This document shows positions 2,331 to 24,128 of a stretch of DNA of 64,000 nt, in pieces. The number at the start of each line of letters is the position of its first letter. Position 1 is the first letter of the stretch. The position numbers and the translations under genes were made by a program. The notes under the pieces were generated by a model. It was not told where the DNA came from, did not search any database, and was given only the letters and a program-made list of their open reading frames with translations. The DNA is from Pseudobdellovibrionaceae bacterium. GTDB lineage: Bacteria; Bdellovibrionota; Bdellovibrionia; Bdellovibrionales; UBA1609. The stretch lies in assembly GCA_023954155.1 (NCBI GenBank), contig JAMLIO010000003.1, forward strand, positions 216,920 to 280,919, written 5' to 3'.

Positions 2331-2347
2331 ATCTCTGAAAAGAGATT

Positions 2348-3998: not shown

Positions 3999-4360
3999 TT
4001 TTTCCCCCTGTTTGTTCGTCAGCCCCCTCCAAATTGGTGCCGAATTGGAACTGGAGAAAATTTACATGCTAACCGTTATCAAACGCAAGCTAAAAAACAA
4101 CATTTTGCGAAAATTATTTATATCTTAACAATAACAAATTCTTATGGGCCCAAATAGCTGAAATAGAAGGCATTTTTTGAAATTTCATTCACTTTTGCAC
4201 CGTCATATTTTCATTACCGTCTCAATACTAGACCGAGGTCGAGTTGATTCTTAGACCTTTTTCTACCTTTCAAAACTCATTTCATGCGGCCAAATATATA
4301 AACCATGCCGATGCGGCCGCAGCTTTGCACATCACAGAATGTGACTTACAAGACACTCTT

Positions 4361-5692: not shown

Positions 5693-5755
5693 AGCAAAGA
5701 ACTATAGTTATCTAACAACCAGTGTGAAGAACATCCGCGTCATTTTGGAGGAAAA

Positions 5756-6277: not shown

Positions 6278-6284
6278 GTTCAAC

Positions 6285-7430
6285 ATGCTTCACGTTCACG
6301 AAAATTCAGATTGCTTTAAACGAACTCAGGAGAGTTTTTCTTATTTTTATCCCACAACCTCTGAGCGTTTTGATCTTGAGGCCTCTCAAAATTTATTTTC
6401 CACTTTTAAGTTAGAATTCCCAGTGTCCCTTCTGCAGGGCGTACAAGAGTTTGTACGGCAATTTTACGACATCACCAAGACTTCGGCATACCAGCAGCAA
6501 GTGATTTCAACCCCACTGGCAAATGTTTTAGATCACCCTTATAAACCCTCTGTGCTCTGCTGTTTTGACTTTCATTATGATTCTGAATCCAAAACTTTAA
6601 AGCTGATTGAGGTCAACACCAACGCTTCGGGGTACCTTGTTGGGTGTCTGGCTTTTGAAGGTTGGGACGTGTCTTCGATTCCCTATCGGGACGAACTGCT
6701 GCGCTCTTTTAAAAATTCAGATTTACTCAGTAAGAACCATCTCTACATTATGGATGAAAATCCCAAGCAGCAAAAAATGTATTTAGAGTTTATGCTTTAT
6801 CAGGAGTTCTTACAGAAACACATCCAAACAGTTTCCATCATGGATTCCCAAGAACTCGAACACAAGTTTCTTGGAAAAGAAGTCCATGCCAGTGAGATTG
6901 CTATTTATAACCGTGATACTGACTTTTATTTAGAACGCTTACCACAGATGCAAGAGCTTTACAGGCAAAACCTCCTCACCCTTAACCCGCATCCATTGGA
7001 TTATGATCTACTGGCCAAAAAAACCAATTTAGATATTTTACAAAGCTGGATTGAGTCTGATGAAAAGTTTAGGTCCTACTTCTTGCAATCAGGCCTTGTG
7101 CGCGATCGCTTTCAAAATTACGATGAGCTGATTCAAGAAAAAAAATCTTTGTTTTTCAAACCTCCTTCCTCCTTTGGTGGCAAATCTATTTATAAAGGCG
7201 CGAGTGTCTCTAATAAATATTTGCAAAGCATCTGGGATGAGAATTTTCTTTTCCAACAAAGCTTTCCCGCTGGAAAATTCACAACTTCAGACCAACAAGA
7301 ATGGAAGTATGATTTGCGTTTTTACACTTATGACGGTTTGGTGCAGTTTTATCTTGCCCGAGTCTATCAAGGACAAATCACTAACTTTCAAACATCAGGC
7401 GGGGGCTTTGCGCCAGTTGTTTTTGCTTAA
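6285..7430 (+). CDS. Hypothetical protein with ATP-grasp-like features
   Basis: 381 aa. LKLIEVNTNASGYLV and KYDLRFYTYDGLVQFYLARVYQG..GGGFAPV resemble ATP-grasp / glutathionylspermidine-synthase-like cores. This is a weak, motif-level call. Confidence 0.35.
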   Translation: MLHVHENSDCFKRTQESFSYFYPTTSERFDLEASQNLFSTFKLEFPVSLLQGVQEFVRQFYDITKTSAYQQQVISTPLANVLDHPYKPSVLCCFDFHYDSESKTLKLIEVNTNASGYLVGCLAFEGWDVSSIPYRDELLRSFKNSDLLSKNHLYIMDENPKQQKMYLEFMLYQEFLQKHIQTVSIMDSQELEHKFLGKEVHASEIAIYNRDTDFYLERLPQMQELYRQNLLTLNPHPLDYDLLAKKTNLDILQSWIESDEKFRSYFLQSGLVRDRFQNYDELIQEKKSLFFKPPSSFGGKSIYKGASVSNKYLQSIWDENFLFQQSFPAGKFTTSDQQEWKYDLRFYTYDGLVQFYLARVYQGQITNFQTSGGGFAPVVFA

Positions 7431-7467
7431 AAAATATGTTTAAGTCCTTTTGGTACAGGAGCACAAT

Positions 7468-8304
7468 ATGCTTAAAATTAACGATCAGGTTACATTTGAT
7501 AACGACAAAAACTTTGTCCTTATTGGTGGACTTAATGTTTTAGAGTCCCGCGACCTTGCCTTTAAAGCTGCCGAAACTTTTCTTAAAGAAACCAGTAAAA
7601 GGAATATTCCTTATGTGTTCAAGGCGTCTTTTGATAAAGCCAATAGATCTTCTGTACATTCCTACAGAGGCCCAGGAATGGATGAAGGCTTAAAAATTTT
7701 TGAAGAGCTTAAAAAAGAATTCAACATTCCTGTGATCACAGACATACACGAACCTCATCAGGCCAAGCCCTGTGCGGAAGTGATTGATATTCTACAACTT
7801 CCTGCGTTCTTATCGCGTCAGACCGACCTAGTGATTGCTATGGCTGAAACTCTTAAACCCATTCACGTTAAGAAGGCCCAGTTCCTAGCCCCCAATCAAA
7901 TGCGCCACATTATTAAAAAATGTGCTGAAGTGGGCAACGACAAGATCATGCTCTGTGAACGTGGGACCAGCTTTGGTTACGGCGGGCTTATTGTAGATAT
8001 GCTCAGTTTAAGTGAAATGAAAAAATTTAATGTTCCTGTGACTTTTGATGTGACCCACTCTTTGCAACTTCCTGGGGGATTGCAAAACTCCACTGGTGGT
8101 CGCAGAGAGCATCTTTTTGAACTCGCACGCGCAGGCATGGCCGTTGGCCTTTCTGCGATTTTTGTAGAGGCACATCCAGACCCCGATAACGCAAAATGCG
8201 ACGGGCCATCGGCATTGCCCTTAAACTTGCTTGGTGAATTTTTAGATCAAGTTAAAGCTATTGATGATTTAGTGAAAAGTTTCGCAAAAATACATGTGAA
8301 TTAG
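7468..8304 (+). CDS. kdsA: 3-deoxy-8-phosphooctulonate (KDO-8-P) synthase
   Basis: Motifs [22 protein letters not shown] and [13 protein letters not shown] are present. ATG 7468 is preferred over the track's TTG 7450 because AGGAG lies 6 nt upstream of 7468. Confidence 0.9.
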
Positions 8305-10676: not shown

Positions 10677-10707
10677 ACCCACGACACCAACAAGATAGTT
10701 TTTGCTC

Positions 10708-12207
10708 ATGGGCGAACACATTAAAGACATTCCATTACATTTGCATAAGTACATCGTCGAACAAAACTATGAACGTTACACATGGGAAGACCAAGAAGTG
10801 TGGCGCTTTATCATGCAGCAATTGAAGTCTTATCTTTCTGTGCACGCCCATCCTGCTTACGTCGAAGGGCTAAGTAAAACAGGAATCAGCACCGAAGAAA
10901 TTCCTAAAATTACGGACATGGATAGCAAACTTAAAAAGTTTGGCTGGCGCGCCGTTCCCGTCAGCGGATTCATCCCCCCTGCCGCATTTATGGAGTTTCA
11001 ATCCCTAAGCATCCTACCCATAGCTAGTGATATGAGAACAGTGGAGCACATTCTTTACACTCCCGCTCCTGATATTGTTCACGAAGCTGCGGGACATGCT
11101 CCGATTCTTATCGATCCTGATTTTTCGAGATATTTAAAAAGTTACGCGGAAGTGGCCAGTAAATCACTCTTGAGCTCCGAGGACTTGGCCCTTTATGAGG
11201 CCATTAGAAACTTAAGTGACATCAAAGAGGCACCTGGCAGCACAGACGAAGACATTAAAAAACACAATGATCATTTGAATCATGTCATCCAGTCGATGAG
11301 CTTTGTGTCTGAAGCCCAGCTTTTGGGACGTATGAATTGGTGGACCGCGGAGTATGGTCTTATTGGTCCCCTTGATCAGCCCAAAATATTTGGCGCAGGA
11401 CTTTTATCCTCCATCGGTGAATCTCGTAATGCTTTAACTAAACCCAAAAAACTTCCTCTGACAGTCGGCTGTTTAAACTACAGCTATGATATCACCGAGC
11501 AACAACCGCAACTTTTTGTGACTCCTGATTTTGATAATCTCATCACTGTCCTAGATGAAATGTCAGAAACTCTGGCCTATAAGGTTGGCGGCAAAAAGGC
11601 TTTAGATAAAGCTTTACAAGCCAACACCGTGTGCACTGTGATCTTAGAGGGAGGGCTTAGCTATTCTGGGATTTTAGAAAAGTATCAAGGTGATGATAAA
11701 GGAGCTAGCTATCTGGGCTTTAAGGGCCCCGTACAAATCGCTAACGATGAGGGGTTTATTGAACTGATCGAAACTCCTTACTATGAAGTTACATTTAATG
11801 ATCCTATTCCTGTGCCTTCTGTGCATGGTGGCCCTAGAGACTTTAAAAACTTTCCTATGATAGATGACTTTGTGGCATCACGAGTGCCCACAAAAAAACG
11901 CAGCGACTACGATTTGAAAAAATTTGCCTCTTACAAAGACTTGCGAGACTTACGACAACAAGGAAGTCAAAACCAGTGGAAGGACGAAGCTTTCCATCGT
12001 CTTTATGATGTCTATAACTCCGAACTTTCTAAAGAATGGCTCTTGGGACTTGGACTGCTTGAGGTGTTATTGCGCTATTCACCGTCATCCCAAGACCCTA
12101 TTGTTCGCTTAACCCAAAATCTTAAATCTCAAACTCTGATATCAGAAGATGAAAAGACCTGCATTGAACTTGGATTTGAACTGTTTCGCAAAGAGGCTCT
12201 TTGTTAG
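10708..12207 (+). CDS. Aromatic amino acid (phenylalanine-4-) hydroxylase-like protein with a long C-terminal extension
   Basis: The iron-binding region PDIVHEAAGHAPIL and WWTAEYGLIG match the biopterin-dependent hydroxylase family. About 200 aa of unassigned C-terminal sequence follow. Confidence 0.65.
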   Translation: MGEHIKDIPLHLHKYIVEQNYERYTWEDQEVWRFIMQQLKSYLSVHAHPAYVEGLSKTGISTEEIPKITDMDSKLKKFGWRAVPVSGFIPPAAFMEFQSLSILPIASDMRTVEHILYTPAPDIVHEAAGHAPILIDPDFSRYLKSYAEVASKSLLSSEDLALYEAIRNLSDIKEAPGSTDEDIKKHNDHLNHVIQSMSFVSEAQLLGRMNWWTAEYGLIGPLDQPKIFGAGLLSSIGESRNALTKPKKLPLTVGCLNYSYDITEQQPQLFVTPDFDNLITVLDEMSETLAYKVGGKKALDKALQANTVCTVILEGGLSYSGILEKYQGDDKGASYLGFKGPVQIANDEGFIELIETPYYEVTFNDPIPVPSVHGGPRDFKNFPMIDDFVASRVPTKKRSDYDLKKFASYKDLRDLRQQGSQNQWKDEAFHRLYDVYNSELSKEWLLGLGLLEVLLRYSPSSQDPIVRLTQNLKSQTLISEDEKTCIELGFELFRKEALC

Positions 12208-13010
12208 TGCCCCCCAAAAAGCCCATAGTCCATAGTGTTTTAGTACGCACAAAAAATGCGGCTAACATTGGTTCTGCGGCACGTGCTACAGCCAATCTCT
12301 CCACAGATGGCAAGCTGATCCTGATCGGTGCCCGAACAAGCCTTAACAGTCAGTCCCGTAAGATGGCGGCAGGCGCACAAGACATTTTGGATCAGCACGA
12401 GGCTTATGAAAGTTGGGAAGACTTTTTAAACACTCATGCCTCAGGAATTCGTTTAGGGCTGTCGCGCCGTAGTGGTAAACAGCGCAAGCCGCTCTCGCTT
12501 CCCGACTCTCTACATCGCGCCCTCAGTGTGCCCGAGCATCACTCGGCTCATATCTATTTAGTTTTTGGACCCGAAGAGGATGGCCTAAGCACAGACGATC
12601 TGGATCACTGCCACATGACCTGCTTTTTACCTACTTACGGAAGTTTTAAGTCCCTCAACCTCGCGCAGGCCGTACTGCTGGCCCATTACGTGACCCAGCA
12701 GAACTTAGAGCAGCTCATCTTTAAAAAAGACGGATACTCACTTGGAACACTCCCGCAGTTTGAACAGCTCACCAGCCAAGGTAGCCCCTTATTTCCCGAT
12801 CAAGCCTTTAAAGAGTATCTGAAGATGGTCCTTCCCCACACCCATGATCAAACTTTGAGCAACAGTTATGAGATTCTACGCCGAATGATTCTTCGAGCCA
12901 CACCCACTCACAAAGAGCTTGAACTTTTCTCTTTAACGATAAAAAACTGTCTTGATCTTAAAACCAGAAGCATTGACGATACTACCATAGTTGGGAGTAA
13001 GACAGAGTGA
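12201..13010 (+). CDS. SpoU/TrmH-family RNA 2'-O-methyltransferase (TrmJ-like)
   Basis: Motifs VLVRTKNAANIGSAARA, LVFGPEEDGLS and SLNLAQAVLLAHY are present. The start is ambiguous (TTG 12201 or GTG 12207). Confidence 0.75.
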   Translation: MLVPPKKPIVHSVLVRTKNAANIGSAARATANLSTDGKLILIGARTSLNSQSRKMAAGAQDILDQHEAYESWEDFLNTHASGIRLGLSRRSGKQRKPLSLPDSLHRALSVPEHHSAHIYLVFGPEEDGLSTDDLDHCHMTCFLPTYGSFKSLNLAQAVLLAHYVTQQNLEQLIFKKDGYSLGTLPQFEQLTSQGSPLFPDQAFKEYLKMVLPHTHDQTLSNSYEILRRMILRATPTHKELELFSLTIKNCLDLKTRSIDDTTIVGSKTE

Positions 13011-14797
13011 GCACAAAGGGTCTAGGAATGAAAATGGGGATGAAGCTTTTAGGAGTTTCAGAACTTTTACGTATGTATAAAGACAACGAGCAAGAGATTG
13101 CTGAAAATGGGCCATGGACCACGGGCATTCGTCTGCTTAATCTTTCTATTAACGTTCATCCTGATCAGCTAAACCATATTCCCGCCGAAGGCCCTTTGGT
13201 GATCGTATCCAATCATCCTTTTGGGGGGGCAGATGGAATTGTGTTGTCCTACCTTGTGGAACAACGTCGCAAAGATTTAAAAGTATTTGTCACCAATATG
13301 CTTTCCGAACAGTTGCCAGCAGCCAAACCCTACTTTTTAGATGTGGAACTTTATGGTGACAGTCATCAACATAAAGCTAGAAACCAGCAAGCAGTGAGTG
13401 CGGCCATTGACTATGTCAAAAACGGAGGGGCTTTAGTCATTTTCCCTGCGGGTACTCCTGCACAGGCTCATACCCCTTTTGGTGAAGCCGAAGACTTGCC
13501 CTGGAAAACAGGAGCCGCAAAAATCATTCAAGAAAGTAAGGCCCCCGTGATTCCCGTATTTTTTGAGGGACAAAACAGTGTGTTCTTTCAAAGTGTAGGT
13601 ATCTTTTTTTCCAGATTTAAATCTGCTCGCACACTGTTATTAGCCAAAGAGCTTTTAAACAAAAAGAATAAAGAAATTTCTGTACGCATCGGAAGCAAGA
13701 TTCCTTTTAGTAATATCGAAAATTTTTCTCTGCACGAGACTTTAAAATTTTTGCGTGCTCGAGTTCATTTATTAAAACACGAAACACAACCCCGTGGCCC
13801 TTCACAAAAAGCCATGGCAAAGTTTAAAAGCACCATCCCTTATAAATTGCGCAAAAGCACAAAGGTTCATGACATCATTGAACCCATACCTACTCCCAAA
13901 TTAAATAAGTTTTTAACCCAGTACGTAGAAGAAAATCCTGACGCTTTACTTATTGATTCTAAAAAATACAAAGTCTTCTTGTTAGATGGATCTAAGACCA
14001 GCGAAAGTTTTCTGATGGAGATTGGACGACTGCGCGAAGTCACCTTTCGCGCAGCAGGTGAGGGATCAGGTAAACGTTGTGATCTGGATGAGCATGACAG
14101 CATCTATCATCATCTGATTGTGTGGAACGATCAAAAACAATGGATATCTGGGTCGTATAGAATTGGACTGACCCCTTACGTCTTACCTAAACGTGGCGTG
14201 CGGGGATTTTACTGTCACCCGTTCTTTAACTTACAAGAGAGTTTTTTTAATAAACTGGGGGACGCTGTTGAGCTTGGGCGCTCTTTTGTCCGCAAAGAAG
14301 AGCAAAGCCAATGGATTTTATTCTTCTTATGGAAAGGCATTGCAAAGTTTCTTTTAGATAATCCAAACTACAAATATCTATTTGGCTCTGTAAGCATCAG
14401 TGATGAGTACAGCGAGAGATCAAGGGTTTTAATGGCGCGGTACTTTTATGATAAGACTGTCGATGATGAAGGTCTTAAAGAACTGGCTCACCCTGCCATA
14501 CCTTTTGATTACGAGTCTAGCCTTACTGATGAAGAAATCCGTTTAATCTTAAATAACATCCAAGACGTTTCCGAGTTGTCCAAAATCATTTCTGATATCG
14601 AAGAGGACCACAAACACATCCCTGTTCTGGTTTATAGGTATGCAGAACTGGGCGCTAAGTACTTATGCTTTTCTGTAGACCCTGACTTTGGAAATACCCT
14701 TGACGGATTCATCACCGTCAAAATCAAAGACATCCCTCGCGAACAGATCAAAAAGTACTTGGCTGAAGAGCAGTTAGATCGGTTTTATCAAAGATAG
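13007..14797 (+). CDS. olsF: Bifunctional acyltransferase, OlsF-like (PlsC-type O-acyltransferase N-domain + GNAT-like N-acyltransferase C-domain)
   Basis: 596 aa. The N-domain has VSNHPFGGADG (HX4D acyltransferase motif) and FPAGT. The C-domain (about aa 300-596) resembles OlsB/hemolysin-like N-acyltransferases (REVTFRAAGEGSG...). This architecture matches the ornithine-lipid synthase OlsF. Confidence 0.55.
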   Translation: MSTKGLGMKMGMKLLGVSELLRMYKDNEQEIAENGPWTTGIRLLNLSINVHPDQLNHIPAEGPLVIVSNHPFGGADGIVLSYLVEQRRKDLKVFVTNMLSEQLPAAKPYFLDVELYGDSHQHKARNQQAVSAAIDYVKNGGALVIFPAGTPAQAHTPFGEAEDLPWKTGAAKIIQESKAPVIPVFFEGQNSVFFQSVGIFFSRFKSARTLLLAKELLNKKNKEISVRIGSKIPFSNIENFSLHETLKFLRARVHLLKHETQPRGPSQKAMAKFKSTIPYKLRKSTKVHDIIEPIPTPKLNKFLTQYVEENPDALLIDSKKYKVFLLDGSKTSESFLMEIGRLREVTFRAAGEGSGKRCDLDEHDSIYHHLIVWNDQKQWISGSYRIGLTPYVLPKRGVRGFYCHPFFNLQESFFNKLGDAVELGRSFVRKEEQSQWILFFLWKGIAKFLLDNPNYKYLFGSVSISDEYSERSRVLMARYFYDKTVDDEGLKELAHPAIPFDYESSLTDEEIRLILNNIQDVSELSKIISDIEEDHKHIPVLVYRYAELGAKYLCFSVDPDFGNTLDGFITVKIKDIPREQIKKYLAEEQLDRFYQR

Positions 14798-14847
14798 TTA
14801 AGTCTTTACTTAGATACACATCTAAAGATGGTGATAATCTTTGAAAA

Positions 14848-15450
14848 CTATTTTCTACAGAATTCTAGTAAAAGCTTACAGTCTCCATCATCTGCGGCCC
14901 TAAGGGCTACAATATACGCGCTACGAATCTCTTGATCTGACTTGTAAGAGCCCTCTTTACTTCCCCATGTGAAAGGCTTTTGATTATACTTATTCTGCAA
15001 AACTTCCGTCATAAGACGTGCATGTCGACCATTACCATTTGGAAAAGCATGAATAAAAACTAACTTGTGATGAAACCTGACACAAATTTCATCCATATTA
15101 TAAGTTTTATGCTCAATCCAATAGGTGGTATTTTGAAATAAATTTTGAAGCTGCATTGCAATTTGCGATGAATCTACTCCAATGTTTTTATTAGTTTGTC
15201 TTTGTTGTCCTGCCCACGTCCAAACCTCACCAAACATTCTTTTATGCAAACCCATACAGAAAGAAACATTTAAACAGTCTCGATCTCGTCGGCTCAAAAC
15301 CCATTTTGTGGCTGCAACAATATTTTTCTTCTCAAAAATATTTAACTCAGCTTGGGTATCAATAAAGTCTAACTTTAAACCATCTACTTCATCTGGATCT
15401 AAAGGAGTTGCCCCTTCTGGATCATCAATTTGAAAATTACTCAAAATCAC
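14848..15450 (-). CDS. Fic-domain protein, mobile mystery protein B type
   Basis: 200 aa. The Fic motif HAFPNGNGRHAR is encoded at 15051-15016. Size, and pairing with an upstream HTH gene across a 7-nt gap, match the TIGRFAM mobile mystery protein A/B pair. Confidence 0.8.
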   Translation of the reverse strand: MILSNFQIDDPEGATPLDPDEVDGLKLDFIDTQAELNIFEKKNIVAATKWVLSRRDRDCLNVSFCMGLHKRMFGEVWTWAGQQRQTNKNIGVDSSQIAMQLQNLFQNTTYWIEHKTYNMDEICVRFHHKLVFIHAFPNGNGRHARLMTEVLQNKYNQKPFTWGSKEGSYKSDQEIRSAYIVALRAADDGDCKLLLEFCRK

Positions 15451-15457
15451 TCTTTTT

Positions 15458-15940
15458 CTATTTATTGTTTACCAGTCCCCAAATTCTTGGGTCCATTTTT
15501 TGTTTCAACTCTTGCTTAAGCTTTTCAAGCTCTTTCTGTGAGTTTTTGGTACCTTGCAATTCTAATCGCATAGAGTGCTCAACATTATTTAGTATCTCAC
15601 GAGCTACTTCTTCCGCTTTACGGTCAATGATGTCTTCCAAATTTGCATAACCATCCTTGGGTACAAAAGCGTAAACCAACTTACATTCCATTTTGTCCGC
15701 AACCCGTTCCAGCATTTCTAAAGTCACATTCTTTTTAGGTTCTCGCTTTTCAAGCTGGATGATAGATGACATGCTTACCCCCAGTAACTGAGCAAGCTGT
15801 CTGGAACTCATTCCAAGCGCATTTCTAATGGCTCTCACCCAGCCTGATGGAGGAGCTTTTAATTGTTTAAGCTCCACAGCTTTAAGTCTTTGGTCTAAAA
15901 TGCTTCTATTTAGCTCTAAGTCTTTTTTATTCGTTTTCAT
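15458..15940 (-). CDS. XRE-type HTH protein, mobile mystery protein A type
   Basis: 160 aa. The HTH is GMSSRQLAQLLGVSMSSIIQLEKRE, with a charged coiled C-terminus. It sits directly upstream of the Fic gene. Confidence 0.7.
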   Translation of the reverse strand: MKTNKKDLELNRSILDQRLKAVELKQLKAPPSGWVRAIRNALGMSSRQLAQLLGVSMSSIIQLEKREPKKNVTLEMLERVADKMECKLVYAFVPKDGYANLEDIIDRKAEEVAREILNNVEHSMRLELQGTKNSQKELEKLKQELKQKMDPRIWGLVNNK

Positions 15941-16009
15941 ACTTATATAATAATTTATATATTATCATTAATCAAATATTTGATCATATTTAGATTATTT
16001 ATTATATCT

Positions 16010-16037
16010 GTTATGATCATTTATATATGATCATAAC
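16010..16037. promoter_or_regulatory. Perfect 10-bp inverted repeat (GTTATGATCA-N8-TGATCATAAC), candidate operator
   Basis: Read directly from the sequence. It lies 70-97 bp upstream of the HTH gene start (15940, minus strand). Additional TGATCA motifs occur at about 15980-15990. Confidence 0.5.
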
Positions 16038-16564
16038 ATTGGGGTTTATCCATATTTCTAGAGCTCTAATTAAGTAATAAGAGCTCAAGTTTATGTTAGT
16101 TAAATCCGCCAAATCGAATTAAAGTACAAGACAGACGCTCTCTAGAATCTAGCGTTGACAGGCTTGAAAAACCGCCACAAAACCTACGCTTCCAAAGCAT
16201 CATCGTGAATGCATTCAATAGCATTAAAAAAAATTTTAATAGCGAAAGCATTCTGTGCAAAGTCTGCCTAGTTGTGCCAATGGCCTCTACGCCTTGGTTC
16301 TATTTTTTTAGTTCTTTGTGAGCTAAATATATATTCCATTCCTTTTAATTTCCCTTTTTTTAAATCTTCTTTAACAAAATCATAATCATGCAGTATCGAT
16401 CTTAATTTTAAGACAGCTTTGCTTAATGTCTTTACCTCTGCCTAATATTAACAAAGTCTTTATATCTTCTACAAAAACATAATCATTTTAACTCTACATC
16501 TATCAGAAAATATATTGTATTTTATAATAAGAAATGTATTCACTCCGCAACAAAGAGGTGTTTG

Positions 16565-18280
16565 ATGGATTTTTCATTTGGATTTAAAAACTATAAATGC
16601 TTTGGAGAGCAAATTAATTGGATTGAGTGGAAACCTATCACTGTACTAATTGGAAAGAATAACTCTGGAAAATCTTCTATTATTGAAATAATTCAACAAC
16701 TGGTAGAAAACAAAAACTACACTCGTTTGATTGCAGAAAAGCACCACAAAAACTCAAATGGAAACGTAGCCGAACCAGAATTCTTTATTAGTCGAAAATT
16801 TGACAAACCAACATTAAGCCAAGCCTTTCCTCCAAGCGTCTCAGGCGGAGACATTGGCATGAATCATGGCAAATATGCTGATACATATGTCGGGAGTGAG
16901 TATAAATATAAGCTAATATCGAATGAGAAAGGTAATCTTTTAGAAATCCAAAAACAAGAGTCCCAAGCACAACCCTTTATGCCTGATCTAAGAACTTGGA
17001 ACAGTTATAAACTTGCAATGGAACGTAGTTTATTATCACCATTAAGACACAAAAAATTTCATTGGATAATACCTGAAAGACAAATTATATCTGAAGAAAA
17101 AACAGAGCCTCCTATCATTTACGGAACTGGCAATGGTTTAACAAATGCCATTGAAATCTTTTTGAATCACAGAAACTATGATGAAAAAACAGTCAGCAAA
17201 TACATCCTTTCAGGTCTTAATGCAATATTCAACCCAGACTATCATTTTACAAGAATTACTACAAAACACGAATCTAATAAATACGAGATCTTTCTTGAAG
17301 AAAATGGAAAGCTAATTTCTTTGAGCAATTTTGGCACAGGAATTAAAACTGTATTATTGGTTTTATCTATATTAAATTTAACCCCTATTTTAGAATGCTC
17401 TAATCCAAACGATTATGTGTACGTATTTGAGGAGCTCGAAAACAACCTGCACCCTCAACTATTAAGACGCGTTTTGAATTATATTTACACAAAAGCAAAC
17501 GAACTGTCTTTTTCTGTGATTCTTACAACTCACTCAAATGTAACTATTGATTTTTTTAGCACAAAAGAGGTTTCGCAAATACTTCATGTACAAAACAAAG
17601 AGGGGGCATATTGTGTTAATAAAGTTCAAACTTTTTTTGACAGCAAAAACGTTTTAATTGATTTGGACATCAAACCCTCTGATTTATTACAAGCTAACGG
17701 TATTATTTGGGTCGAAGGACCAAGTGACAGGATTTTACTTAATAAATGGATTTCCGAATGGGGGAAAGATTATAACTTTAATGAAGGAACGCACTATCAA
17801 ATTGTTTTCTACGGAGGAAGATTACTTAGCCATTTATCAGCTGAAGATTCAGAAGAAAATGATGATTTAATTAAAATGCTGAGAATTAATTCAAACGCAG
17901 CAATTTTGATTGATAGTGATAAAAAAATTGAATCTGACACACTCAACTCCACCAAGCAAAGAATCATTGATGAGTTTAACTCTTTTCAAGGCTTCACTTG
18001 GATAACAAAAGGTAAAGAAATCGAAAACTACTACCCTAAAGAGGTTGTGTTAAGAAAACTCTGCCTAAATGATATCCAAGACTACCATAACTTTGAACCC
18101 TTTTTTGCTAAGCTCAATACAGCTCAAGATAAACTGGGAGACAAGCTCAGTCGGCAAAAAACTAAGCTTGCAACCTCCCTTATTGAAAACTTTGATATAG
18201 ATACATGGCGCAACGTAATGGATTTAGACAAAAGAATGACCAATTTAATTTCAGAAATTAAAAAGTGGAATAATTTATAA
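16565..18280 (+). CDS. OLD-family (GajA-like) ABC-ATPase + Toprim nuclease-like protein
   Basis: Walker A GKNNSGKSS (16652-16678), Walker-B-like YVYVFEELENNLHP, and TTHS. The C-terminal Toprim signature is IIWVEGPSDRILL (from 17711) plus ILIDSDKK (DSD at 17912-17920) and GKEIENYY. ATG 16565 is preferred because AAGAGG lies 6 nt upstream. Confidence 0.7.
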   Translation: MDFSFGFKNYKCFGEQINWIEWKPITVLIGKNNSGKSSIIEIIQQLVENKNYTRLIAEKHHKNSNGNVAEPEFFISRKFDKPTLSQAFPPSVSGGDIGMNHGKYADTYVGSEYKYKLISNEKGNLLEIQKQESQAQPFMPDLRTWNSYKLAMERSLLSPLRHKKFHWIIPERQIISEEKTEPPIIYGTGNGLTNAIEIFLNHRNYDEKTVSKYILSGLNAIFNPDYHFTRITTKHESNKYEIFLEENGKLISLSNFGTGIKTVLLVLSILNLTPILECSNPNDYVYVFEELENNLHPQLLRRVLNYIYTKANELSFSVILTTHSNVTIDFFSTKEVSQILHVQNKEGAYCVNKVQTFFDSKNVLIDLDIKPSDLLQANGIIWVEGPSDRILLNKWISEWGKDYNFNEGTHYQIVFYGGRLLSHLSAEDSEENDDLIKMLRINSNAAILIDSDKKIESDTLNSTKQRIIDEFNSFQGFTWITKGKEIENYYPKEVVLRKLCLNDIQDYHNFEPFFAKLNTAQDKLGDKLSRQKTKLATSLIENFDIDTWRNVMDLDKRMTNLISEIKKWNNL

Positions 18281-18512
18281 CTGATGCATTCTTGATCTTA
18301 GCATTGTAATCAAAACTACAGTTTGTAATAAAAGTTTACTTAAACCATTTATTAAGATTTAAATACATCCTATATAAGACACAAAGCATTTTTGCGCACG
18401 ACCAATTTTATAATAATATTTTGTCAGTATTAATTATTGCCAGTTTGACCTGCTCCCCAAAAGTTGAGCCAAAAAGTATGATAAACTAGGGCTTAAAAAT
18501 GGGAGAAAGAAG

Positions 18513-18695
18513 ATGCCACGAGGAAAAAGGATAAGGGCAGAAGAAATCGTATCAAAACTTCGCCAAGCAGAAGTGATGTTAGCAAAAGGTACAGCGCTAG
18601 AGCTAGTCTGCAAACAGTTAGAAATATCACCACAAAGTTATTATAGATGGCGCAAAGAATACGGTGGCCTTGAAATCGATCAAGCTAAGAAATGA
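18513..18695 (+). pseudogene. Truncated IS3-family OrfA (HTH) fragment of a second, related IS
   Basis: The 60-aa fragment MPRGKRIRAEEIVSKLRQAEVMLAKGT...SPQSYYRWRKEYGG is paralogous to the intact OrfA at 18774. The reading frame ends exactly at the second left-end sequence (18693). Confidence 0.7.
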
Positions 18696-18773
18696 CCTCC
18701 TCCCCAAAAAGAAGGCCATGGGTATCTTTAGAAGCGTCGTGACAAGTGGTCCTTAAAGCCCTAAGGAGGATAA

Positions 18774-19040
18774 ATGAAAAAAACAAGATACACAGAAGAA
18801 CAGATCGTGCACGCCCTTCGCAGAGCCGAGTCTGGCGAACGAGCCAAGGAAGTTTGTCGTAGCCTAGGAATAACCGAGCAAACTTTTTATACATGGAAGA
18901 AGAAGTATGCAGGGTTAGGGATAAGTGAGCTACGCAAGCTAAAACAGCAAGAAGACGAGATTCGTCGTTTAAAGAACCTAGTAGCAGACCTCATGCTGGA
19001 TAAACAAATGCTCCAAGAGGTGGTTCAAAAAAAGCTCTAA
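18774..19040 (+). CDS. IS3-family transposase OrfA
   Basis: 88 aa with an HTH ([15 protein letters not shown]) and a leucine-zipper-like tail. The slippery heptamer A-AAA-AAG sits in frame at 19028-19034. Confidence 0.9.
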
Positions 19041-19072
19041 AACCTGCTAAGAGACGCGATCTTGGTCAGTGG

Positions 19073-19879
19073 TTGGTCAAGAATTTTCGCGTGAGCCATC
19101 GTAGAGTTTGCAGGTTATTGCGTCTGGCTCGGTCAACATATGACTATAAGAACCACCCTAGAGATGATCGTGCAGTTCGGGAAAAGATCATCAGCATAGC
19201 GCAATCAAGGCCACGTTATGGCTGTCCACGCATACATGTCTTACTTAGGCGTGAAGGCTGGAAGGTTAATCACAAAAGGGTTCATAGGATTTATAAGGAA
19301 GAGCAGTTATGGGTACGCACCAAGAAAGTTCGTCGCAGAAAATTTACAACTGAGCTAAGAGTTACACCTCCTACCCCGACCAATCTTAATCAAGTTTGGA
19401 CAATGGATTTTGTGCATGACCAGTTGATTGATGGCCGTAAGATACGGATGTTAACCATAGTTGATAAGTTGAGTCGAGAAAGCCTAGCAATTGATTCTGG
19501 GTATGGCCTTAAATCAGAACAGGTTATAGAAACACTAGAGCGTTTAAAAATTTTCAGAGGAATTCCAGAGGTTATATGTGTAGACAATGGGAGTGAATTT
19601 ACATCAAAAAAACTTGATCAGTGGGCTTATATAAATGAAGTAAAGTTACATTTTATTAGACCTGGAAAGCCTACAGAAAATGGGCACATAGAATCGTTTA
19701 ACGGTAGACTTAGGGATGAGTTTTTAAATGCAAATCTCTTTTCAAGCCTTGAGGACTTCCAAAGAAAGGCGGAAAGATGGCGTATAGAATATAACAATTG
19801 GAGACCTCATTCATCAATAGGCAACTTGACACCAAGAGAATTTGCTAGGAGAAGAATGAATAAACAGACCGCTTGTTAA
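19073..19879 (+). CDS. IS3-family transposase OrfB (DDE integrase core), expressed as OrfAB by -1 frameshift
   Basis: The -1 frame read from 19028-19034 runs [22 protein letters not shown]... straight into this ORF. The DDE residues lie in [17 protein letters not shown] and [12 protein letters not shown]. Confidence 0.9.
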
Positions 19880-19979
19880 TGCGTTGTCACTCAGAAAGAT
19901 ACTGGCTTTGTCGATGGGGATAGATCAGCTATGCAGATAGTCTCTTAGTATTTGGCTCATACTTCGGGGGCAGGTCACC

Positions 19980-20411
19980 GACGCCTGCCCCGTAAAAGAC
20001 GAAACCTACAAAGTGGCCGAAAGGTACCAACTCGTCGTTTACGTTGTAGCCAACCAATACCTTAACGTTCCTATGAGCACTCGCATTCGTATGGAATGCG
20101 TGGAAGGGTCATTTGATGCTGCTGATGATTGGATTGTGGAAAAGATTGAGCGTGGCGATGTTTTGATCACCTCAGATATTCTTTTAGCTCAGCGATGTTT
20201 AGAAAAAGAGGTCTTTGTTCTCAACCCCAAAGGACACGAATTCACCCAAGATAATATTGGTGAAGCCATAAGTGGTCGTGAGCTAGCTGAACACCAAAGA
20301 AACTTAGGTCAGTCAGGTACTGGCCCAAGCCCCATGACTAAAGCTGACCGTTCGCAGTTTTTGTCAAAGCTAGATCAAGTAATACAAAAGGCAAAGCGTA
20401 AAAATACTTGA
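19980..20411 (+). pseudogene. yaiI: YaiI/YqxD (UPF0178/DUF188) family gene, 5'-truncated by the IS
   Basis: The frame reads DACPVKDETYKVAERYQLVVYVVAN... from the first codon after the IS right end (19977). That is the conserved family N-terminus (..VDADACPV..) missing about 7 codons and its start. The track ORF begins at an internal GTG (20013). Confidence 0.7.
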
Positions 20412-20616
20412 TGGTTGATAAAATCAGCCTCAAATCTATAAAATAGGCAGCAAATATCCAGATCAAAGTCTAGTAAAAGTCTATATTTAAGACCTAATTC
20501 ATTGAACATATAACCTATAATACTATCTTTAAAATGAGCCCAACTTCTATTAAAATAGGCCATTTATAACCTTATAATGCTTTATATTGATTTAGGTACT
20601 TAATTTAATCACAACA

Positions 20617-20717
20617 TCTAGTAAATTTACCAAATAAGTTCTAGAAAAAATAAACTCTATCTTCTAGTATATTTTTATGTTAAGTTCTAGTAAATTTTCT
20701 CGATAAGTTCTAGAAAA
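20617..20717. promoter_or_regulatory. Two 32-bp direct repeats (27/32 identical) plus a partial copy, upstream of the large Fic gene
   Basis: Copy A (20617-20648) is TCTAGTAAATTTACCAAATAAGTTCTAGAAAA. Copy B (20686-20717) is TCTAGTAAATTTTCTCGATAAGTTCTAGAAAA. A partial CTTCTAGTATATTT lies at 20661-20674. Each copy carries two TTCTAG(T/A)AAA half-sites. Copy B ends 13 nt before the GTG start. Confidence 0.6.
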
Positions 20718-20730
20718 GGGAGCCACAAAA

Positions 20731-22278
20731 GTGCCAAAGCAAAAGCCTCATGAAATTTTAGCTGAAGCTCTGACGCATGCAAAACAAGTCTCTGGAGAAA
20801 AAGGGGTGCTCAAGCACTCCGATCTTGAAAGTAAGTATATACAAGTTCTAAAAAAAGGTGGATGGCTTACCCCCATTATTAAAGGCTGGTACTTACTTAA
20901 CAAACCTGAAGACACTGGCACTTCTACAGTTTGGTATGTGGGCTTTTGGTCCTTTCTTAAGGCTTATTTAGAGGATCGCCTAGGTAAAGACGGTTACTGC
21001 CTGTCTGCTGAGGCTTCTGTCTCTCTTCATACAGCCGAAGAGCACATCCATAAACAAATTACAGTGATCACAAAAAAGAATACTAATCAAACTATAGATC
21101 TACCTTTCGGAACATCACTTCTTCTTTATACCGATACAAAAAACTTTCCACAAAGCATTCAAGATCTTAGCGGATTAAGCGTTATGCCCCTGCCACTAGC
21201 ACTATGCAGGCTATCACCCGCGTACTTTCAGACAAAACCTTTAAACGTTGAGATCGCCTTACGAAGCTTAAGCTCAGTTTCTGAAGTGTCACGAATTTTT
21301 CTTGATAATGGCCTTGTCACAAGTGCATCACGGTTAGCTGGAGCATTTGAAGCTTTGGGAGATCAAAAAGCCGCAAAACAAATTATTGATGACATGGACG
21401 CCGCTGGTTATGCCGTCGAAAGCCAAAATCCTTTTGAAAGATACACTTCTTTGTTTACTAACTCTACCAGAATACGCTCACCTTATGTTGGAAGAATTCA
21501 AGCGCTTTGGAAAAAAATGCGTCTTGATATAATAGATATCTTACCTCCGCCGCCTGGGTTGGTGCCACGTGAAAACAAAAACTTTGTCCACATCATTGAA
21601 GAACGATACATACAAGATGCATATCACTCTTTATCCATTGAAGGGTATGAAGTTAGTGAAGAGCTGATTGAAAAGATTCAATCAGGAAATTGGAGCCCTG
21701 ACTCCAACGCTAGTGATTTGAATCATAAAAATGCTATGGCCGCCAAAGGTTACTACGAATCCTTCATTCAAGTTCTTGATAGCATTAAAAAAATCTTAAG
21801 AAAAGATAAGTCTGCCAGTGAAGTTTTTTATGAAGATTTGCAAGATTGGTATCGCGCCTTATTTTCCCCAAGTGTGCAAGCAGGTATTATTAAAGCAGCA
21901 GACCTGGCAGGTTACAGAAACGCTCCCGTATATATTAAAAATGCCCGACATGTGCCACCCAGATCTGAAGCTGTAACCGATGCCATGGAAGCCCTGTTTT
22001 CTCTTATTAAAGACGAAGAGCACGAAGGTGTTAAAGCTATTCTAGGTCATTTTATTTTTGTTTATATTCATCCTTACATGGATGGTAACGGACGTATTGC
22101 AAGATTTTTAATGAACCTTATGCTGACCTCAGGTGGCTACGACTGGACCATTATTCGCACGGAAAGCAGGAATAAGTACATGGCTGCCTTAGATGCTGCA
22201 TCTTCTGATGGTGACATTAAACCCTTTGCGAAATTGGTGGCACAAGAAATGGAGCACTGGAAGGATCAGGGCAGCTAA
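20731..22278 (+). CDS. Fic-domain protein with an AbiEi-antitoxin-like N-terminal domain
   Basis: 515 aa. The Fic motif HPYMDGNGRIAR is at 22069-22104. An N-terminal-side inhibitory-helix-type motif SLSIEG ([ST]xxxE[GN]) is at 21628-21645. The first ~200 aa (VLKHSDLES..LKKGGWLTPIIKGWYLL...YCLSAEASVSLHT) follow the AbiEi_4-type wHTH antitoxin pattern. GTG start with AAGGGAG upstream. Confidence 0.75.
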   Translation: MPKQKPHEILAEALTHAKQVSGEKGVLKHSDLESKYIQVLKKGGWLTPIIKGWYLLNKPEDTGTSTVWYVGFWSFLKAYLEDRLGKDGYCLSAEASVSLHTAEEHIHKQITVITKKNTNQTIDLPFGTSLLLYTDTKNFPQSIQDLSGLSVMPLPLALCRLSPAYFQTKPLNVEIALRSLSSVSEVSRIFLDNGLVTSASRLAGAFEALGDQKAAKQIIDDMDAAGYAVESQNPFERYTSLFTNSTRIRSPYVGRIQALWKKMRLDIIDILPPPPGLVPRENKNFVHIIEERYIQDAYHSLSIEGYEVSEELIEKIQSGNWSPDSNASDLNHKNAMAAKGYYESFIQVLDSIKKILRKDKSASEVFYEDLQDWYRALFSPSVQAGIIKAADLAGYRNAPVYIKNARHVPPRSEAVTDAMEALFSLIKDEEHEGVKAILGHFIFVYIHPYMDGNGRIARFLMNLMLTSGGYDWTIIRTESRNKYMAALDAASSDGDIKPFAKLVAQEMEHWKDQGS

Positions 22279-22376
22279 AAGCTCTCTAGCTATGACATCT
22301 CTAAAGATTTGCTGTGTACAGTTTTGTGAGAGAATCGCCGCAGTAAGGAAGCTTTGTATAGATTGAACTTTTTTAA

Positions 22377-22481
22377 CAAAATTATACCTGATCAGGTATA
22401 ATTTTTTGTTTTAGGAATTTTTCGTACCCTATCGGGTATAATAACTAGACTTTTTAATTAAATTATACCCAATAGGGTATG
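22377..22481. repeat. Three copies of a hyphenated dyad TTATACC(C)-N4-6-(G)GGTATAA in a convergent intergenic region
   Basis: 22377-22404 is AAAATTATACC-TGATCA-GGTATAATTTT, followed by a T-run. 22424-22442 is GTACCC-TATC-GGGTATAAT. 22462-22481 is ATTATACCC-AATA-GGGTATGAT. Confidence 0.7.
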
Positions 22482-22520
22482 ATTTTGGTCTTTAACATTA
22501 GGAAGTGCGCGGCTGTCAAT

Positions 22521-22913
22521 CTACGGAGTAGTGTCAGCTTTCTCTATTTTCTCAAGTTCATTATCCCAACTGGCTCTGCTGGAATAAAAGATGTGCGACT
22601 TCGGTTTGAGAGTCACCTCTGAGTCTAGGCTGCCAGCAGGAACTACCAAGAGATTTCCTTGCATTTGTACGCTGGGCATTGCTGACCCGCAGTTTTGACA
22701 GAAAGCTTTAGCGTGTCTTGTCCCAGACAGATTATAGTTGCGCACCTGCTCTTCGCCCTGAACCCACTTCAATTTGGCGGCGGTTGAAAATAAGTTTGCG
22801 GCATGAGCCGATCCCGTGTCCTTTTGGCAAAAGTGGCAATGGCACAGATAGAAACTTTCAAATTCACCCATCACTTCAAATTTGATCTGCCCACATAAAC
22901 ACGAACCCTTCAT
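22521..22913 (-). CDS. GFA-family (glutathione-dependent formaldehyde-activating / CENP-V-like) zinc protein
   Basis: 130 aa with the Cys pattern MKGSCLCGQIKFEV...CHCHFCQK...CQNCG. Confidence 0.8.
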   Translation of the reverse strand: MKGSCLCGQIKFEVMGEFESFYLCHCHFCQKDTGSAHAANLFSTAAKLKWVQGEEQVRNYNLSGTRHAKAFCQNCGSAMPSVQMQGNLLVVPAGSLDSEVTLKPKSHIFYSSRASWDNELEKIEKADTTP

Positions 22914-22916
22914 TTT

Positions 22917-24128
22917 TTACCTCTGGCGAATACGTACACCTATATCAGGGTACAATATAAATAATTTCACTGTTTTAAAAAACTTAAATACAATCTTAAA
23001 CACAGAAAGTTTAATCTTTATTCCTTTTAAAAATTTGGGTGCGATATAGATGTAGATTTCATTCCACAAGTTTTGTTCGTACATATCTTTTAAAATATCC
23101 GCTCCACCTTCAACAAAGACAGAGTGGATGTTATGACCTACACGCAACTGTTTCATGGCTTCAGCAAGGTTGAGCTGTCCTTTTGAGTCACGGCCTACAA
23201 ATATTAAATTTCCAGAGAAACCCTTACACTTCTCCTGGTCTTTGAGTTCCTGGTCGGTGATTAAAAATAAATTCTGCGGAGAATGGACGCTAAAAATATT
23301 ATGTTTCGCCCTTTGCTCCAAGACTCTTAAACGGGAATCCACAATCGCCACCTTGTTGTCTTTTTGGATCTGCCCCAAGCGCACATTTAACGATGGATTA
23401 TCTTGTAAGATGGTTTTGTATCCCACTAAAGTCACATCATGGGTGGCACGCAGATGATGAGTGTGCTCTTGTGCTTTTTTTCCAGAAATCAAAAGGCGTT
23501 TATAAGGACTACCTATTACACCATTTAAACTTTGGGCCCATTTAAGAGTGATAAAGGGTCTTTGATGTTGAATGGCAAAAAAGAATTCTTTATTCAAATT
23601 TTGGCTTTCATTCACGATAGCTTGAACACGTTTTTGTGATTGAGGGTGGGTTTGCCATTCTAAAAATATCTTTTCCCATTCAGGATTCCATTCCTTGCCC
23701 ACTCTCGATGGGGAAGAGGATAAAATGTCTTCTATAAAAATGGTCTTTTGACCTGCCTGTTGTAAAATCTCAAACCCTTGTCCACACACTAAGGGGTTGG
23801 GATCTTTCACTAAGGCTATAACAGCTTCAATGGGGTACTGAGCTAATGTCTTCGCACACGAAGGGGTTTTCCCTTCATGGGCACACGGCTCGAGAGTGAC
23901 AATCACATACGCCCCTTGCAACTGCTTCATCGGGTCTTGCAGTTGCTTAAGGGCGTTCACCTCGGCATGGGCCTCACCATATTTTTCGTGAAAGCCTTCG
24001 GCAATCTTTTTACCTTGAGCATCAAGGATCACACATCCCACACAAGGGTTCGGTGAAACATACCCCAAACCTTTTTTGGAAAGGTCCACAGCCTCTTGCA
24101 GGTGCTTTATCAAATCCTGTGCATTCAA
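22917..24128 (-). CDS. ribD: Bifunctional riboflavin biosynthesis protein RibD (deaminase/reductase)
   Basis: The deaminase zinc motifs HAEVNAL and PCAHEGKTPSC are followed by a C-terminal reductase domain (TLKWAQSLNG, VEGGADIL). Confidence 0.9.
   Translation of the reverse strand: MNAQDLIKHLQEAVDLSKKGLGYVSPNPCVGCVILDAQGKKIAEGFHEKYGEAHAEVNALKQLQDPMKQLQGAYVIVTLEPCAHEGKTPSCAKTLAQYPIEAVIALVKDPNPLVCGQGFEILQQAGQKTIFIEDILSSSPSRVGKEWNPEWEKIFLEWQTHPQSQKRVQAIVNESQNLNKEFFFAIQHQRPFITLKWAQSLNGVIGSPYKRLLISGKKAQEHTHHLRATHDVTLVGYKTILQDNPSLNVRLGQIQKDNKVAIVDSRLRVLEQRAKHNIFSVHSPQNLFLITDQELKDQEKCKGFSGNLIFVGRDSKGQLNLAEAMKQLRVGHNIHSVFVEGGADILKDMYEQNLWNEIYIYIAPKFLKGIKIKLSVFKIVFKFFKTVKLFILYPDIGVRIRQR

Follow-up and report, generated by a model that had tools for sequence, protein, structure and literature searches.

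Gene content of the olsF-ribD interval

We analysed a 64,000-nucleotide (nt) stretch of contig JAMLIO010000003.1 (positions 216,920 to 280,919, forward strand; assembly GCA_023954155.1) from a Pseudobdellovibrionaceae bacterium, referred to below, at its full length, as the window, and focused on an islet of accessory genes lodged between the core genes olsF and ribD. An initial annotation of this DNA had noticed that the gene content changes between the olsF-like gene and ribD, and the open reading frame (ORF) listing and the family scans recovered every gene it had named, each where it had been placed: a helix-turn-helix (HTH) gene paired with a Fic gene, an OLD-family ATPase-Toprim gene, a rearranged IS3-family insertion sequence (IS), a yaiI gene lacking its start and a second, larger Fic gene with an AbiEi-like N-terminal part. 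The interval is organized as follows (lengths of proteins in amino acids, aa; L012, L013 and L014 are relatives and L001 is a sibling strain).

13007-14797 (+): olsF, core gene of the left flank, convergent with ribD
14798-22916: whole inserted block, from the olsF stop to the ribD stop, ~8.1 kb, absent from L012, L013 and L014
14848-15450 (-): mobile mystery protein B, 200-aa Fic protein (Fic200); TIGR02613, 229.5 bits (cut-off 124.4); Pfam Fic; motif HAFPNGNGRHAR
15458-15940 (-): mobile mystery protein A, 160-aa Xre-type HTH protein (HTH160); TIGR02612, 140.5 bits (cut-off 122.6); Pfam HTH_3
15946-16035: palindromic repeats ATGATCA-N9-TGATCAT, putative operator/promoter upstream of protein A, partly conserved in L001
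16100-16110: left edge of the strain-variable cargo, where similarity to L001 is lost (blastn; the match deteriorates past 15940, within the HTH promoter region)
16562-18280 (+): ATPase-Toprim nuclease of stand-alone Class 1 OLD type, 572 aa; Pfam AAA_15 5e-20, AAA_21 4e-19; in an AT-rich segment
18446-19977 (+): hybrid IS3-family element; Pfam/NCBIfam IS3 orfA and orfB; ends TGACC...GGTCA
19980-20411 (+): yaiI/yqxD (DUF188) without a start; NF001095, 155.9 bits, profile positions 8-149 of 150
20616-20730 (+): five direct repeats, core TTCTAG(T/A)A, period 23 bp, putative operator array, ending at the GTG start codon of the next gene
20731-22278 (+): 515-aa fusion protein (Fic515), GTG start; Pfam Fic; Fic motif HPYMDGNGRIAR; inhibitory motif S300-LSIE-G305
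22521-22913 (-): GFA-family gene, 130 aa; Pfam GFA 7.5e-29; starts 4 nt after the ribD stop
22917-24128 (-): ribD, core gene of the right flank, convergent with olsF

A strain-variable islet at a recombination hotspot

The block between olsF and ribD is a strain-variable accessory islet. In L012, L013 and L014, whose OlsF proteins are 87% (L012) and 81% (L013 and L014) identical to that of the window, the series PhhA-SpoU-OlsF is followed less than 30 nt further on by RibD-HgmA-Ppk1-Ppx, and none of Fic200, HTH160, the OLD protein, the IS, YaiI, Fic515 and the GFA-family protein has a tblastn match in these loci. The comparison of the junction in related genomes, which the initial annotation had proposed as a check, thus found it empty in three relatives, in which the gene order of the islet is not conserved. 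Because the relatives have olsF directly before ribD without the islet proteins, the inserted block spans 14798-22916 and includes the GFA gene; the earlier delimitation was right in placing an accessory block between olsF and ribD and needed amending in that the GFA gene had been treated as flank. The GFA gene, which has no tblastn match at the junction in L012-L015, is probably metabolic cargo rather than a defence gene. L015, a more distant relative (OlsF 57% identical), carries thiol-redox genes, not defence genes, between olsF and ribD; it was the sole useful relative returned by a scan of genome contigs with an OlsF alignment, a scan with a single OlsF sequence having given no relative, and a scan of metagenome contigs with RibD retrieved only relatives that were 30-32% identical.

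A closer view is offered by the sibling strain L001, positions 1-4516 of which align to window positions 11585-16105 at 97.9% nucleotide identity (blastn), with OlsF, Fic200 and HTH160 identical to the window proteins. Beyond ~16100, L001 instead encodes HerA (579 bits), SIR2 (321 bits) and a type I restriction enzyme (787 bits), as identified with PADLOC. The mobile mystery pair is the conserved left edge of the islet, the cargo to its right is swapped between close strains, and the olsF|ribD junction is a hotspot for defence cargo. The earlier view of the region as a defence islet therefore stands as regards its accessory status and the hotspot, documented by the SIR2-HerA and type I restriction genes of the sibling, whereas for the modules of the window themselves a role in phage defence is what we infer.

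Between the mobile mystery pair and SIR2-HerA, L001 also encodes three proteins without a PADLOC match (L001 positions 5070-7879): a 200-aa protein without a family, a 237-aa protein with a weak C-terminal SWIB match and a 381-aa protein with a weak SIR2_2 match (Pfam). These three may be further defence candidates.

The islet is heterogeneous in composition. The GC content drops to 0.32-0.35 at 15.0-18.5 kb versus 0.414 outside the islet, and the OLD segment, with a GC content of 0.32-0.33, shows the strongest tetranucleotide deviation of the 64-kb window (distance up to z = 6.2), whereas the IS, yaiI, Fic515 and the GFA gene are native-like. Windowed GC and tetranucleotide frequencies thus bear out the AT-richness noticed earlier at 15.9-18.4 kb, but within the islet only the OLD segment is compositionally foreign. 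As the initial annotation had remarked, neither an integrase nor convincing att repeats are present: the ORF listing contains no integrase in the islet, and no att-like or boundary repeat longer than 9 nt was found. Searches for tRNA genes and for Rfam RNAs, including retron and type III antitoxin RNAs, were likewise negative.

The mobile mystery protein pair

With both profile scores above the respective cut-offs, the HTH and Fic proteins can be assigned to the curated families TIGR02612 (mobile mystery protein A) and TIGR02613 (mobile mystery protein B). The two genes lie on the same strand in the order A then B, separated by 7 nt. Homologues are found on 260 plasmids, are annotated by PGAP under the same name and show the same A-B arrangement on plasmids of Rhizobium, Euzebya and Rhodovastum. 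A literature search by name found no experimental work on mobile mystery protein A/B, the name occurring a single time in each of four papers.

In class I Fic toxin-antitoxin systems of the VbhTA/FicTA type, the toxin carries the motif HxFx(D/E)GNGRxxR and its partner an inhibitory helix with the motif (S/T)xxxE(G/N). The canonical toxin motif is absent from Fic200, since HAFPNGNGRHAR has N in place of D/E. The family has a signature of its own: HxFPNGNGRHxR is invariant in B from four phyla-spanning homologues, and the alignment of A reveals a conserved (S/T)MxLExQ in the C-terminal helix, with (S/T)MxLE in four of four sequences. Fic200 in addition matches PDC-S04 of PADLOC (1.5e-21). Judging from these motifs and from the upstream palindromes, A and B may constitute a toxin-antitoxin-like, autoregulated module, in which protein A would repress its own operon at the palindromes and, most likely, would also keep the Fic enzyme B inactive through the conserved (S/T)xxxE helix, in a manner akin to class I Fic toxin-antitoxins.

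A predicted stand-alone nuclease of Class 1 OLD type

The ATPase-Toprim gene lies within the foreign, AT-rich segment. An identical database protein is 571 aa long and starts at an ATG one codon after the TTG of the ORF listing, so that the real start is probably the ATG at 16565. In 36 homologues, the ATPase motifs are invariant (Walker A GxNNSGKS at 31-38, EELENNxHP at 290-298 and TTHS at 322-325), as are the Toprim residues WVE385GPSD, D451-S-D453 and E486/E488; the protein thus displays the N-terminal ABC-type ATPase, with Walker A, Walker B and H-loop, and the Toprim Glu and DxD that define Class 1 OLD proteins. There is no Pfam Toprim match. The AlphaFold2 (AF2) model (pLDDT 87.5) aligns over its full length with its best Foldseek matches, the Eco8 effector, GajA and Ts OLD (6p74), and phmmer gave no sequence match to any solved OLD structure. 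PADLOC matches to GajA (5e-26), AriA and Old (3.7e-13) are weak (at most 90 bits), and with the NCBIfam retron and PtuA models the protein stays far short of the cut-offs. Given the lack of phmmer matches to the solved OLDs and the weak PADLOC Old score, the protein belongs to a separate, uncharacterised OLD clade.

Its relatives form a large and uniform family of ~560-aa proteins from Vibrio, Shewanella, Alteromonas, Verrucomicrobia and others, those of Vibrio, Shewanella and Alteromonas being ~40% identical to the window protein. Three homologue contexts (L002, L004/L005 and L007; 55-56% and 41% identity) contained neither a helicase, a reverse transcriptase or AriB nor any common neighbour. 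Class 1 OLDs measure 500-600 aa (PMC12392090), and, with the stand-alone criterion taken from PMC7049728 and PMC12392090, the length, the architecture and the solitary state of the 572-aa protein match the stand-alone Class 1 OLD, of the single-gene kind, as defined in the literature. Published members of the class block phage replication (PMC12392090, PMC7049728, PMC13261556), and one of them, Vc OLD of Vibrio cholerae, is an antiphage nickase (PMC12392090). By analogy, we propose that a single-gene OLD was acquired with AT-rich foreign DNA and that its ATPase would govern a Toprim nuclease of the two-metal type, by which invading DNA is nicked or cut.

Multi-gene systems were sought and rejected. 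No GajB UvrD-like helicase ORF occurs at 14.8-22.9 kb or beside the OLD homologues of the three contexts, which speaks against Gabija; PARIS does not apply, the Toprim being fused in the same 572-aa chain and no second gene (AriB) being present. More generally, the partners expected of a hidden Gabija, PARIS, retron, Septu or AbiE system are absent and scores fall far below the family cut-offs, in line with the earlier statement that no canonical multi-gene system is complete here: GajB, AriB, a reverse transcriptase and AbiEii are all missing from the islet.

Two of the homologue settings deserve mention. In a metagenomic genome, the OLD homologue adjoins a RES-Xre toxin-antitoxin pair (L004, 6181-7594), and in Vibrio mimicus it adjoins a filamentous prophage with Rep_trans and Zot (L007, 850-7223). 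Both settings fit carriage on or beside mobile elements.

A hybrid IS and a decapitated yaiI

The IS that follows the OLD gene displays the features of the IS3 family, namely, orfA and orfB with a -1 frameshift, a DDE transposase and TG...CA inverted repeats, and contains more than one complete element would, including two left inverted-repeat ends (IRL1 and IRL2) and a single right end (IRR):

starts 18446 (+): IRL1, outer left end, pairs with IRR (score 18)
18513-18695 (+): 60-aa orfA fragment from a related IS
18693 (+): IRL2, second left end, alignment with IRR of score 1
18774-19040 (+): intact orfA, HTH_Tnp_1
~19026 (+): A7G slippery site in the overlapping orfA/orfB frames
19004-19879 (+): orfB, open frame, DDE (rve) transposase; NF033516, 241 bits
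ends 19977 (+): IRR, pairs with IRL1, not with IRL2

IRL2 breaks the 60-aa orfA fragment and provides its stop codon. There is no target-site duplication, the flanks being GTT on the left and CCG on the right. A blastn search of the IS against plasmids returned only distant IS3 matches, and the window holds no second copy. The yaiI frame abuts the right end of the IS and lacks its first seven codons, start codon and promoter; from its truncation, it is probably a pseudogene. A rearranged IS3 and a decapitated yaiI had been recognized before, and the extra left end of the hybrid element and the yaiI profile match starting at position 8 agree with that description. In the simplest history, one IS3 inserted into another, recombination gave the hybrid, and adjacent deletion or recombination followed. 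Such a rearrangement would have brought the OLD segment together with the remainder of the islet and decapitated yaiI.

A Fic protein with an AbiEi-like N-terminal domain

Fic515 consists of an N-terminal winged-helix, AbiEi-like domain (residues ~1-265) and a C-terminal class II Fic domain. The latter is closest to metazoan FICD (1e-21 by sequence and 1.7e-29 by profile), to which Fic515 aligns across both the inhibitory helix and the Fic core. In 42 sequences of the family, S300, E304, G305, H447, D451, G452, N453, G454, R455 and R458 are invariant, and so are the inhibitory motif S300-LSIE-G305 and the Fic motif HPYxDGNGRxxR, with Y in place of F. The presence of an (S/T)xxxE(G/N) helix N-terminal to the Fic core together with the Fic motif defines class II, and a weak Pfam VbhA match covers residues 294-314. 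On release from its own SxxxEG helix, by which it would be self-inhibited, the Fic domain is predicted to AMPylate a host target and thereby to cause growth arrest.

The AF2 model of Fic515 (pLDDT 83.5) shows the N-domain as a winged helix followed by a mixed domain. Foldseek ranked FICD first; AbiEi (6y8q_A, E = 4.3e-3, TMt 0.47) and its mycobacterial homologue Rv2827c (1zel_A, E = 3.9e-2) were the only non-Fic matches among the top 45. Residues 1-265 have no Pfam match, the AbiEi_4 model on seven N-termini reached an E-value of 0.18 in one homologue only, and a profile search of PDB sequences retrieved no AbiEi. A sequence-level AbiEi identity of the N-domain, confirmed neither by Pfam at E-values up to 10 nor by the PDB profile search, was accordingly rejected: the fusion proposed in the initial annotation holds for the Fic domain and for the fold-level likeness to AbiEi, but not for AbiEi at the sequence level.

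The N-domain family comprises 729 representatives at 50% clustering, and because most of these are 500-530 aa long, the fusion is the norm in the family. A literature search for AbiEi with a Fic domain found no description of such a fusion, and the family is widespread but apparently undescribed. No common neighbour gene was found among the Fic515 homologues; some adjoin phage terminase or portal genes and one adjoins a SLATT_5 gene. Two known systems were considered and set aside. SoFic proteins combine DUF4172/Fic_N, a Fic domain and, at the C-terminus, a winged HTH domain; Fic515 scores 22 bits with NF046030 (cut-off 550), its match to the PADLOC SoFic model is confined to the core (profile positions 57-261 of 361), Fic_N has no match in the 42 family members, and DUF4172 matches 1 of the 42, not significantly (E = 0.17). 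Membership of AbiE is excluded by the lack of an AbiEii (DUF1814) nucleotidyltransferase ORF in the islet.

The PADLOC run on the islet proteins that had been suggested as a further check amounts to the PDC-S04 candidate for Fic200, weak GajA/AriA/Old matches for the OLD protein and the core-only SoFic match for Fic515. As for the novelty of the modules, which the initial annotation had raised, it appears to stand for the Fic515 fusion family, but not for the other two, the HTH+Fic pair being the curated mobile mystery A/B and the nuclease fitting Class 1 OLD, which has published antiphage members.

Direct-repeat arrays upstream of Fic515 genes

The five repeat units in front of Fic515 start at 20616, 20639, 20662, 20685 and 20708, exactly 23 bp apart, and the ribosome-binding site falls within the last of them; the array 8-mer occurs in only four other places of the 64-kb window. 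We sampled ten full-length Fic515 homologues from IMG/VR (L096-L105; 40-45% identity), in all of which 3-5 direct repeats directly precede the gene; counted with the window, these make up eight independent lineages. Seven of the eight have a period of 23-24 bp and L103 has a weaker array with a period of ~25 bp, and the motif differs between lineages:

20550-20578 (window): promoter-like site upstream of the Fic515 array
L096, L097, L098 and L101 (one lineage): repeat motif AATAACAAAGTAAATTT; L096 array at 3856-3924
L099: repeat motif AATAAGCTAAAA; array at 3902-3973
L100: repeat motif CAAATAAGAG; array at about 3930-4000
L102: repeat motif ACTTGTAA; array at 3873-3992
L103 (weaker): repeat motif AACAAGrTTT
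L104: repeat motif AAAACTTGTAA; array at 3807-3926
L105: repeat motif AATATTCGTG; array at 933-1004

Exact periodic 8-mer arrays are rare: the 2.23 Mb examined contain 15, eight of which lie directly upstream of Fic515 homologues. Within each unit, the first 8-17 nt are conserved and the remainder of the 23-24 nt varies. The position and layout of the arrays suggest autoregulatory operators. AbiEi reportedly autoregulates by binding repeats (Hampton 2018, cited in PMC9755527). These are 23 bp long, and in Fic515 the winged-helix N-domain would bind the five repeats, spaced by 23 bp, before its own gene and repress its transcription. We propose autorepression at a lineage-specific operator array because of the conserved 8-17-nt units upstream and with a precedent in CccR, in which Fic and DNA-binding domains are combined and which represses the promoter of its own gene (PMC9755527).

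Other features of the window

The convergent ends of Fic515 and the GFA gene are separated by a further set of repeats:

22384-22480: three 16-bp palindromes, (A/G)TACC-N6-GGTAT, ~40 bp apart

Each palindrome precedes TATAAT or TATGAT; the first overlaps a sigma-70-like site with 11 of 12 positions (22373-22402, +), and the last scored as terminator-like. Possible roles are those of a binding array for a regulator, of the promoter of a small RNA or of terminators.

Outside the islet, an 815-aa ORF without a Pfam match (49508-51955, -) adjoins a gene for an OmpA-domain protein, and the stretch around it is, besides that in the islet, the only one in the window whose composition deviates (tetranucleotide z 3.5, GC 0.45). 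Two genes upstream of olsF, before SpoU, lies a gene for a 501-aa Biopterin_H protein (aromatic amino acid hydroxylase; 10702-12207, +), an unusually long form of which only a part matches the Pfam profile and which is 82% conserved in relatives.

Interpretation and alternatives

Taken together, these observations are best explained if the ~8.1-kb strain-variable islet in the olsF|ribD recombination hotspot is a mosaic of independent, self-contained modules rather than one system, a reading to which we attach a probability of about 80%. That the two Fic modules, which the initial annotation had seen as bracketing the OLD gene, do so in a functional sense finds no support: the HTH+Fic pair is kept while the cargo changes, the OLD homologues are solitary and the Fic515 homologues lack a common neighbour. 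A functional link between the two Fic modules was likewise discarded: their Fic classes differ, and the sibling strain has kept just one of the two.

Several points weigh against this interpretation or against the functions proposed for its parts. The comparison with L001 reaches only the left side of the islet, the right boundary having not been recovered, so that it does not cover the variability or the joint arrival of yaiI, Fic515 and the GFA gene; besides, GFA and yaiI are non-defence genes. PDC-S04 is only a candidate family in PADLOC. The Fic motif of protein B has N where canonical AMPylases have D/E, an N that is invariant in the family sample, and the residue after the Glu of the A motif is L, A, D or R rather than G/N, which leaves the model of class I inhibition unsecured. 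The distance from the OLD stop to the IS downstream is 165 nt, and it is by three homologue contexts only that the loss of a partner gene is argued against. The similarity of the Fic515 N-domain to AbiEi is weak (TM 0.47, no significant Pfam match), and the repeats in front of Fic515 are direct, whereas AbiEi operators are inverted repeats.

Among the alternatives, the block could be what is left, after decay, of a single mobile element (an integrative island, an integrative and mobilizable element or a prophage) that has lost its integrase and att sites, with the mobile mystery pair as its addiction module and the rest as cargo. Mobile mystery pairs are indeed typical of plasmids and mobile elements, the pair occupies the conserved left edge in both strains, some Fic515 homologues lie on phage-like contigs beside terminase genes, and IS activity is evident. 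We nevertheless consider such a remnant unlikely, given that there is no integrase, tRNA or att-like repeat, that the heterogeneous composition, with the OLD part alone being foreign, argues for piecemeal assembly, and that the cargo of the sibling is wholly different beyond 16100, as expected of exchange at a hotspot. A narrower alternative concerns the OLD gene, which might be the surviving half of a two-gene system of the Gabija, PARIS or retron type whose partner was deleted by the adjacent IS3 rearrangement. The left end of the IS only 165 nt after the OLD stop, without a target duplication, signals deletion or recombination next to the gene, and the best PADLOC matches are to GajA models, as the top Foldseek matches are to the retron Eco8 effector and GajA. 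Yet the GajA scores do not exceed 90 bits and the retron and PtuA models remain far below their cut-offs, the protein falls within the Class 1 length range (PMC12392090), and neither its closest homologues (55-56%) nor that of Vibrio mimicus has a helicase, a reverse transcriptase, AriB or a common neighbour, all within a ~560-aa family that is large and uniform; a lost partner is therefore quite improbable.

The array in front of Fic515 could, in turn, be a transcribed RNA antitoxin of a type III toxin-antitoxin system (ToxI-like) or an iteron-like replication or recombination site. Tandem direct repeats located downstream of a promoter-like site and just upstream of a toxin gene recall the geometry of the type III ToxIN loci, in which repeats lie between the promoter and the toxin gene. 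Repeats of type III RNAs, however, are conserved over the whole unit and longer (34-40 nt), whereas in the Fic515 arrays only the first 8-17 nt of each 23-24-nt unit are conserved, and for this reason protein-binding sites fit better than a type III RNA antitoxin. Moreover, there is no terminator between the array and the gene, the last unit holds the ribosome-binding site, and Fic515 itself provides a winged-helix domain and an inhibitory helix, all of which makes an RNA antitoxin or an iteron very improbable.

Within the mosaic interpretation, a more far-reaching proposal for Fic515 can be put forward tentatively, as a possibility that we find more doubtful than convincing: the protein would represent an undescribed family of single-chain, self-regulating toxins, with at least 729 cluster representatives, in islets and phage-like contigs; its N-domain would read a lineage-specific array, and release of the Fic domain would lead to abortive infection or superinfection exclusion, so that the protein would be a single-gene defence system of a new kind, in which the code between protein and operator co-evolves. 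Were the N-domain to bind the repeats, the family would provide a natural series of matched protein-operator pairs and a new route to the silencing of Fic toxins; were it not to bind them, the islet would be ordinary accessory DNA. In either case, the AbiEi-like::Fic family, with its invariant catalytic and inhibitory motifs and a conserved upstream array of lineage-varying motif, is easily testable. The OLD gene adds a member to an untested clade of stand-alone OLD nucleases, at a time when very few Class 1 OLDs are characterised, and the islet itself is a well-defined defence hotspot in a Bdellovibrionaceae lineage, for which the empty site, two different cargos and an IS rearrangement that can be dated are available. 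Bdellovibrionaceae are a family of predatory bacteria, and it is by the names of database proteins 100% identical to its own that the host was placed in the Bdellovibrionaceae/Pseudobdellovibrionaceae.

Comparison with known systems

Each module resembles a known system while departing from it in some respects. The mobile mystery pair resembles VbhA-VbhT and FicA-FicT in that a helix of A carries (S/T)xxxE, like the inhibitory helix of a class I antitoxin, but B has N for D/E, the motif of A lacks G/N, and A also carries a DNA-binding domain. The OLD protein shares the conserved catalytic residues of the Class 1 OLDs (P2 Old, Thermus scotoductus OLD, Vc OLD and E. coli YbjD), and its homologues are without a helicase partner; it differs from them in lacking a phmmer match to the solved OLDs and in matching the PADLOC Old model at only 3.7e-13.

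Fic515 parallels CccR and SoFic, the latter a single-gene Fic antiphage system that gives abortive infection (PMC12249575), in joining, within one gene, an AMPylase-type Fic core to a winged-helix domain and in having a class II intramolecular inhibitory helix. It differs from both in its reversed domain order, with the AbiEi-like, putatively DNA-binding part at the N-terminus and without DUF4172/Fic_N, in a core that is closest to metazoan FICD and reads HPYxDGNGR, with Y for F, and in the periodic direct-repeat array upstream. With AbiE, it has in common the AbiEi-like fold of the N-domain and the coupling of a regulator to a nucleotidyl-transferring toxin; however, AbiEii/DUF1814 is lacking, the toxin-like Fic domain is fused in cis, the repeats are not inverted but direct and the AbiEi_4 match is not significant. 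As regards the islet as a whole, only the host lineage, represented by a Bdellovibrionaceae metagenome-assembled genome, and the lack of an integrase are unusual for defence islands and hotspots, with which it shares the hallmark that one core-gene junction holds, in close strains, different defence cargo, mixed with IS and toxin-antitoxin-like genes.

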